NCBI RefSeq assembly: GCF_003019035.1
Contig: NZ_CP027447.1
Reading direction: 5' to 3' (one strand)
From: Escherichia coli
GTDB lineage: Bacteria; Pseudomonadota; Gammaproteobacteria; Enterobacterales; Enterobacteriaceae
Length of the DNA: 64,000 nt
Shown here: one piece after another, positions 30,282 through 30,635 of the stretch
Layout of the letters: every line of letters starts with the position of its first letter
How positions within the stretch are numbered: position 1 is the first letter of the stretch
Notes under the pieces: model-generated
What the model was told of the DNA's origin: nothing
Database searches by the model: none
The model's input: only the letters and a program-made list of their open reading frames with translations
Made by a program: the position numbers and the translations under genes

Positions 30282-30596
30282 ATTGTTCAGTCTCTTATTA
30301 TCTTTATATGCTTGATATACTTAAGGTTGTAATAAGCAAAAGAGGACTGAACTGTAAAATATAGGCGTTATACTTTACAGCAACAGTACGCCGCTAACGC
30401 AATTGCTACCTCTGGCATAACAAGTATATCGGGTAAGGGTTTCTGTTCCGCACACGCAGGCGCAGAATATCGTTAAGATGTCCATATTGTTGTTTTAGGC
30501 CCGCTAGTAATGCGCTACGGGTATTTAATATTGTTAAACCCTGATAATCGCTCCGGTTATTTCCGGGATAAATGTACTACCGCAGTTACTATCATA

Positions 30597-30628
30597 GCCC
30601 CGACAATAAAACTTGCCGGGGCTTTTTT
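30597..30628 (+). terminator. Intrinsic-terminator-like hairpin with T6 tract on the + strand, in the glcB-glcA intergenic region
   Basis: GCCCCGACAATAAAACTTGCCGGGGC followed by TTTTTT; U-tract only in + orientation; coordinates approximate. Confidence 0.4.
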
Positions 30629-30635
30629 GACGCTA

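Follow-up and report, generated by a model that had tools for sequence, protein, structure and literature searches.

Intercistronic stem-loops can give unequal expression of the genes of a single operon, as the REP hairpins located between malE and malF do. In other operons also, intercistronic hairpins that trap 3' ends change relative mRNA stability. Bidirectional intrinsic terminators can reportedly serve two convergent transcripts at once. Finally, GadY is a cis-antisense sRNA of the gadX-gadW spacer, and its expression is linked to stationary phase and depends on sigmaS.

The hairpin described here, located between glcB and glcA in Escherichia coli, shares features with these systems. Like bidirectional terminators, it is made up of one palindrome where plus- and minus-strand transcripts converge, with RNA ends reported on both strands. 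In contrast to them, it carries a U-tract on the plus strand only, and the minus-strand glc transcript must partly read through it for glcA, which makes it an intra-operon 3'-end hairpin. The likeness to the malE-malF structures lies in a stable hairpin just after a cistron, here glcB, with a 3' end at its foot, ahead of the gene of a membrane transporter. However, the glcB-glcA hairpin is single-copy and is not a REP element. The likeness to GadY concerns C0719, an sRNA whose gene lies opposite the intergenic spacer of a co-transcribed gene pair, with a late-growth rise and a sigmaS-like -10 element.

Coordinates are those of the window, that is, the whole 64 kb stretch of DNA that was analyzed. 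Adding 3,090,998 converts them to NC_000913.3, on the basis of a spacer length (354 bp) identical in K-12. The two minus-strand ORFs bordering the spacer (Table 1) correspond to glcA and glcB in the glc region of K-12 MG1655. The spacer itself, 30282-30635, differs from that of K-12 at two positions, with no indels, and contains the hairpin, the T-run of which is oriented antisense to the glc operon.

Table 1. Features of the glcB-glcA region, in window coordinates.
Feature	Position	Strand	Details
glcA (glycolate/lactate permease)	28599..30281	-	last gene of glcDEFGBA, downstream of spacer
sigma70 ChIP-chip region	29918-30604		covers candidate promoter; Cho et al., 2014
sigma28 ChIP-chip region	29956-30355		covers candidate promoter; Cho et al., 2014
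Rifampicin-trapped RNAP ChIP-chip region	30118-30468		covers candidate promoter; Cho et al., 2014
Candidate C0719/ES170 promoter, TGaTATACTTAA	30313..30324	+	extended -10 TGaTATACT plus TAA; predicts start 30328/9
ES170 RNA-seq transcript (Rau et al., 2015)	30329..30628	+	NC_000913.2 3119349-3119648; includes C0719 and terminator
sigmaS ChIP-chip region	30343-30704		overlaps spacer, begins 19 nt downstream of motif; Cho et al., 2014
C0719 candidate sRNA, Rfam RF00117, 222 nt	30360..30581	+	297.6 bits, E = 5.6e-79
Term-seq 3' end of glcB-containing mRNA	30592	-	NC_000913.3 3121590; 4 nt past stem (...GGGGCUAUGA-3')
Palindromic GC-rich hairpin	30596..30623	both strands fold	-15.2 / -21.1 kcal/mol; one of 2 sites in 128 kb
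T6 tract, U-tail of plus-strand intrinsic terminator	30623..30628	+	directly after stem; T5-T7 elsewhere in Escherichia
glcB (malate synthase G)	30636..32807	-	stop codon 30636-30638, 12 nt from hairpin

On the plus strand, the letters read ...TATCAT AGCCCCG A CAA TAAAAC TTG C CGGGGCT TTTTT G... The base of the stem is formed by AGCCCCG (30596-30602) paired with CGGGGCT (30617-30623), hence 7 bp including 6 G-C pairs, where at least 5-7 bp are expected of an intrinsic terminator. Beyond an A.C mismatch (30603/30616), an inner helix of 3 bp joins 30604-30606 to 30613-30615, so that the plus-strand stem of the major allele either encloses a 14-nt loop or is an interrupted stem of 7+3 bp. The six T directly after the stem exceed the usual minimum of five. 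Folding of the 41-nt plus-strand RNA gives a z-score of -4.27 (0/200 shuffles as good). On the minus strand, 11 bp, one of them G-U, form a stem with no interruption (z = -4.84), and no U-tract follows it, the tail being UAUGAUAG. A consensus terminator scan of 29500-31500 returned no terminator-like site; its loop limit is 3-8 nt, and the perfect stem encloses 14 nt. A stricter scan (hairpin of at most 34 nt, dG at most -12, at least five consecutive T directly after) was applied to the whole 64 kb window on both strands and found 2 sites, including the glcB-glcA hairpin, vs. a mean of 0.8 in 20 dinucleotide shuffles. Near the hairpin, no complete plus-strand ORF ends upstream of it, and the sole sizeable one, 30510-30659, passes through it. 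Thus, the first-pass annotation had correctly described a GC-rich hairpin followed by T6 on the plus strand, antisense to the glc operon and with no plus-strand ORF upstream.

Two other structures were observed elsewhere in the window. A perfect 11-bp hairpin (AGCCGGATGAT...ATCATCCGGCT, 28562-28590) closely follows the stop codon of glcA and has T-rich tails on both strands; it is probably a bidirectional terminator that closes the glc operon and faces the region of the 1527-aa yghJ/sslE ORF. At 10628-10666 (minus strand), a match to the Rfam JUMPstart RNA (RF01707) scores 58.5 bits vs. a gathering score of 35.

The same first reading had taken the terminator for an orphan. This does not hold, as on the plus strand C0719 lies just upstream of it and ES170 extends through it. 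The hairpin looked orphan to a sequence-only reader because current RefSeq records, K-12 included, annotate no feature in the glcB-glcA spacer. C0719 was reportedly first detected with oligonucleotide arrays. In the literature, a transposon insertion is reported in the predicted C0719 site, and C0719 was part of a library for sRNA overexpression, where it produced no phenotype in biofilm formation or motility. It has further been described as a variable sRNA that certain lineages of E. coli and Shigella have lost, and its level is reported to increase late in fed-batch culture. A full-text literature search for glcB and glcA together with sRNA and Hfq gave no match. The database entry (RF00117; EcoCyc G0-8912) describes the same locus and strand as the element studied here, namely the plus strand of the glcA (yghK)-glcB interval, antisense to the glc operon. 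The covariance-model match, well above the gathering score of 50 bits, extends over model positions 1-222 of 222. Its coordinates differ from the element in that their end, 30581, is 15 nt short of the stem, which begins at 30596, and the terminator is thus left outside the annotated RNA.

RNA-seq data place the hairpin within the transcript. Rau et al. (2015) locate C0719 at 3119380-3119601 of NC_000913.2 (plus strand) and, around it, ES170 (300 nt). With C0719 as the anchor for coordinate conversion (3119380-3119601 = 30360-30581), the 3' boundary of ES170 falls on the last T of the T6 run. A small-RNA kit with adapter ligation was used for the libraries, so that strand should be preserved, and transcripts were delimited by a coverage threshold of 100 reads. 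The length of exactly 300 nt calls for caution, since the limits of ES170 may have been rounded or may simply reflect coverage. In the same study, C0719 is weakly expressed (mean expression value of about 46 vs. thousands for established sRNAs), and C0719 and ES170 are up 3.5-fold and about 7-fold in two late-growth comparisons. The real C0719 transcript is probably about 300 nt long, and the comparison suggests that the 222-nt database coordinates are too short at both ends, a transcript of about 300 nt from 30328/9 to 30626-30628 fitting better. Hence, an antisense RNA appears to end at the hairpin, as had been proposed, but it is not a new one, since it already has a name and an Rfam family. 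Contrary to what coverage of the glcA leader might suggest, this RNA leaves the glcA ribosome-binding site uncovered, as its predicted start is about 47 nt upstream of the ATG. In substance, the hairpin is already known, as the end of a described candidate sRNA.

A candidate promoter is located immediately upstream of ES170. The motif TGaTATACTTAA matches 9 of the 11 positions of the sigmaS consensus TCTATACTTAA, agreeing with the core and the downstream part of this extended -10 element. Within it, TATACTTAA (30316-30324, plus strand) has no second occurrence in the window and is located 4-5 nt upstream of the 5' boundary of ES170; the looser pattern TGNTATAMT has 7 occurrences in 128 kb (window, both strands) vs. 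3.3 expected. A consensus promoter scan did not report this extended -10. ChIP-chip regions for rifampicin-trapped RNAP, sigma70, sigma28, and sigmaS are present at the glcB-glcA locus (Cho et al., 2014); as ChIP-chip has no strand resolution, a spacer promoter could serve glcA instead. The motif and the transcript boundary together make 30328/9 the most likely start of ES170/C0719. A sigmaS-like -10 fits the late-growth rises of both RNAs.

On the minus strand, a 3' end is mapped at base resolution, whereas the plus-strand end is known from the RNA-seq coverage boundary at 30628 only. Term-seq data (Adams et al., 2021, supplementary file 1) list 3121590 (minus strand) as the "primary" end of glcB, antisense to C0719, with a printed sequence that finishes ...GGGGCTATGA. 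From its position in the file, we infer that this end belongs to the LB OD 2.0 sheet. Two 3' ends internal to glcD are listed beside it, which suggests expression of the glc operon in that sample. In the curated lists of the same study, for three conditions, there is no plus-strand 3' end near 31216xx. Since the minus-strand tail has no U-tract, the end at 30592 is more likely hairpin-protected or weakly terminated than a site of canonical termination. The idea of an RNA structure separating glcB from glcA, put forward in the first-pass annotation, gains support from this "primary" end so close to the stem.

Of 5426 complete E. coli genomes, about 4540 contain the spacer together with the 3' end of glcB, at one place per genome, and the remaining 880 or so lack both; where lineages are reported to have lost C0719, the glcB end thus appears to have been lost along with the spacer. 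Alleles were compared in 48 Escherichia sequences (44 metagenome-scan loci, K-12, strain PEC408, E. albertii, and the window). Six stem-loop alleles were found, each folding stably on both strands, with energies of -14.9 to -21.1 kcal/mol in the glc sense and -13.0 to -21.6 kcal/mol in the plus sense. The T-run varies between 5 and 7 (A5, A6, or A7 on the glc-sense strand), and in the alleles L083/L095 and L113/L122, 11 bp of the plus-strand stem pair perfectly around a loop of 6 nt. Within these Escherichia sequences, the stem is kept on both strands. The contrast between a G-U pair on one strand and an A.C mismatch on the other was considered as a sign of minus-strand selection and dropped: over the six distinct alleles, pairing amounts to 95.5% in the glc sense vs. 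93.9% in the plus sense, and shuffle controls are not exceeded. As a consequence, these counts are silent on which strand is selected.

In PEC408 (L002, 1-4047), an IS5-like element of the ISKpn26 family has taken the place of glcA and of the greater part of the spacer. The breakpoint corresponds to window position 30588, 8 nt past the hairpin, which remains beside glcB. Upstream of the IS element are a partial N-acetylneuraminate epimerase pseudogene and a type II Zorya defense system (zorA2, zorB2, zorE). As regards more distant relatives, the matches listed contain no enterobacterial spacer outside Escherichia for comparison, the next GlcB after that of E. albertii (96% identical) being about 66% identical. 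Among the best 80 GlcB relatives listed, those following E. albertii belong to Pseudomonas, Halomonas, and Burkholderiales (61-67% identity) and none to other Enterobacteriaceae, which suggests that malate synthase G is patchy in this family.

Conservation extends beyond the hairpin. Between E. coli and E. albertii, 27.6% of four-fold degenerate sites differ in glcB and 33.0% in glcA, and 18 differences are seen over the 354 positions of the spacer (5%). The 179 nt nearest glcA (30282-30460) show 2 differences (1%) and the 204 nt of 30282-30485 show 3, before a sharp rise in divergence at 30486-30520. Recombination was rejected as the cause of this low divergence, because the flanking coding bins diverge normally. 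On this comparison, the glcB-glcA spacer is under strong purifying selection, which overlapping signals could explain, either sense (glcA leader), antisense (C0719 promoter and body), or both. Compared with shuffles, the spacer folds better in the glc sense (z = -2.73) and no better as plus-sense RNA (z = -1.05).

The same spacer contains an inverted repeat at 30352-30380 with 12-nt arms, CTGTAAAATATA-ggcgt-TATACTTTACAG, including a G-U pair in the glc sense and an A.C mismatch in the plus sense. It competes with a predicted hairpin at 30365-30400 and could be a structure of the glcA leader or a protein-binding site. The repeat overlaps the stop codon of a Cys-rich 36-aa ORF, MDILTIFCACVCGTETLTRYTCYARGSNCVSGVLLL (30375-30485, minus strand), which lies between glcB and glcA and has no obvious Shine-Dalgarno sequence. 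A coding explanation of the spacer by this ORF was rejected: 6 polymorphisms are non-synonymous and 4 synonymous, and no constraint is seen at the protein level.

We consider it fairly probable that the hairpin is two-faced, serving as the intrinsic terminator of C0719/ES170 and, ahead of glcA, as the hairpin at which glcDEFGB transcripts have their 3' end. On the plus strand, the hairpin and its U6 tail would act as the Rho-independent terminator of an antisense RNA of about 300 nt and would halt it before it runs antisense into glcB; termination, rather than processing, would presumably make this end. On the minus strand, the stronger 11-bp hairpin, 12 nt after the glcB stop codon, would either terminate glcDEFGB transcripts weakly or protect them from 3' exonucleases, giving them a stable 3' end. 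In that case, glcA would be present only on transcripts that read through, and the hairpin might affect the GlcB:GlcA ratio.

Each face might also act alone. That the hairpin merely stabilizes or attenuates the 3' end of the glcB mRNA, with an incidental T-run and with C0719 as antisense noise or an array artifact, is possible, although we find it unlikely. It would agree with a base-resolution 3' end that exists on the minus strand only, with the stronger minus-strand fold in the major allele, and with the low abundance of C0719, its lack of phenotype, and its absence from RefSeq annotation. PEC408, too, keeps the hairpin with glcB after an IS-associated rearrangement has replaced glcA. However, a stem followed directly by U6, in canonical geometry, is found solely on the plus strand, the minus-strand tail being UAUGAUAG, and the T-run stays at 5-7 in all alleles. 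Moreover, both boundaries of ES170 coincide with independent marks, the predicted promoter and the last T of the run, and RNAP and sigma factors bind in the spacer. The converse, a C0719 terminator for which the 30592 end is a trapped decay intermediate with no effect on glcA, seems decidedly improbable. It would account for the missing minus-strand U-tract, for a 3' end located 4 nt past a stable stem, as exonuclease stalling would be expected to produce, and for the literature assignment of glcA to a glcDEFGBA operon, which means that transcription must cross the hairpin. Against it, the minus-strand end is strong enough to be curated as the dominant peak, the minus-strand fold is equal or better in 5 of the 6 alleles, and hairpins trapping 3' ends between cistrons are established to alter relative mRNA stability in other operons.

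Nothing specific, finally, speaks for a chance palindrome or a relic with no present function, whether a repeat of REP type or a footprint left by a mobile element, which we regard as highly improbable. The comparison is confined to Escherichia sequences, so that covariation has no statistical power. However, chance would give about 0.8 sites of this kind in 128 kb and the hairpin is 12 nt from a stop codon, it is kept in E. albertii where four-fold degenerate sites diverge by about 30%, and RNA ends have been published on both strands. REP/BIME sequences or another repeat family were rejected, since the hairpin is found at a median of 1 place per genome and a maximum of 2 in 4543 genomes; being single-copy, it belongs to no repeat family.

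Besides the two-faced hairpin, a wider role can be envisaged for the antisense RNA. ES170/C0719 (30329-30628) is encoded opposite most of the glcB-glcA spacer (30282-30635) and is complementary to it in the manner of GadY. C0719 might thus be a GadY-like, stationary-phase (sigmaS/sigma70) cis-antisense RNA that pairs with the spacer and leads to processing of the glcDEFGBA mRNA or to transcriptional interference; with the two-faced hairpin, it would set the level of GlcA relative to the glc enzymes. We hold this extension by analogy to be rather unlikely. The resemblance is architectural only, RNase III-dependent cleavage, Hfq binding, and a regulatory effect being features of the GadY side, and the main text of the paper on RNase III cleavage sites does not mention glc genes. 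If this GadY-like reading were true, the conservation of the spacer would reflect overlapping sense and antisense constraints. The significance of the present results is mainly one of annotation: a terminator that seemed orphan belongs to a long-described candidate sRNA, and the same hairpin is also the mapped 3' end of the glcB mRNA.
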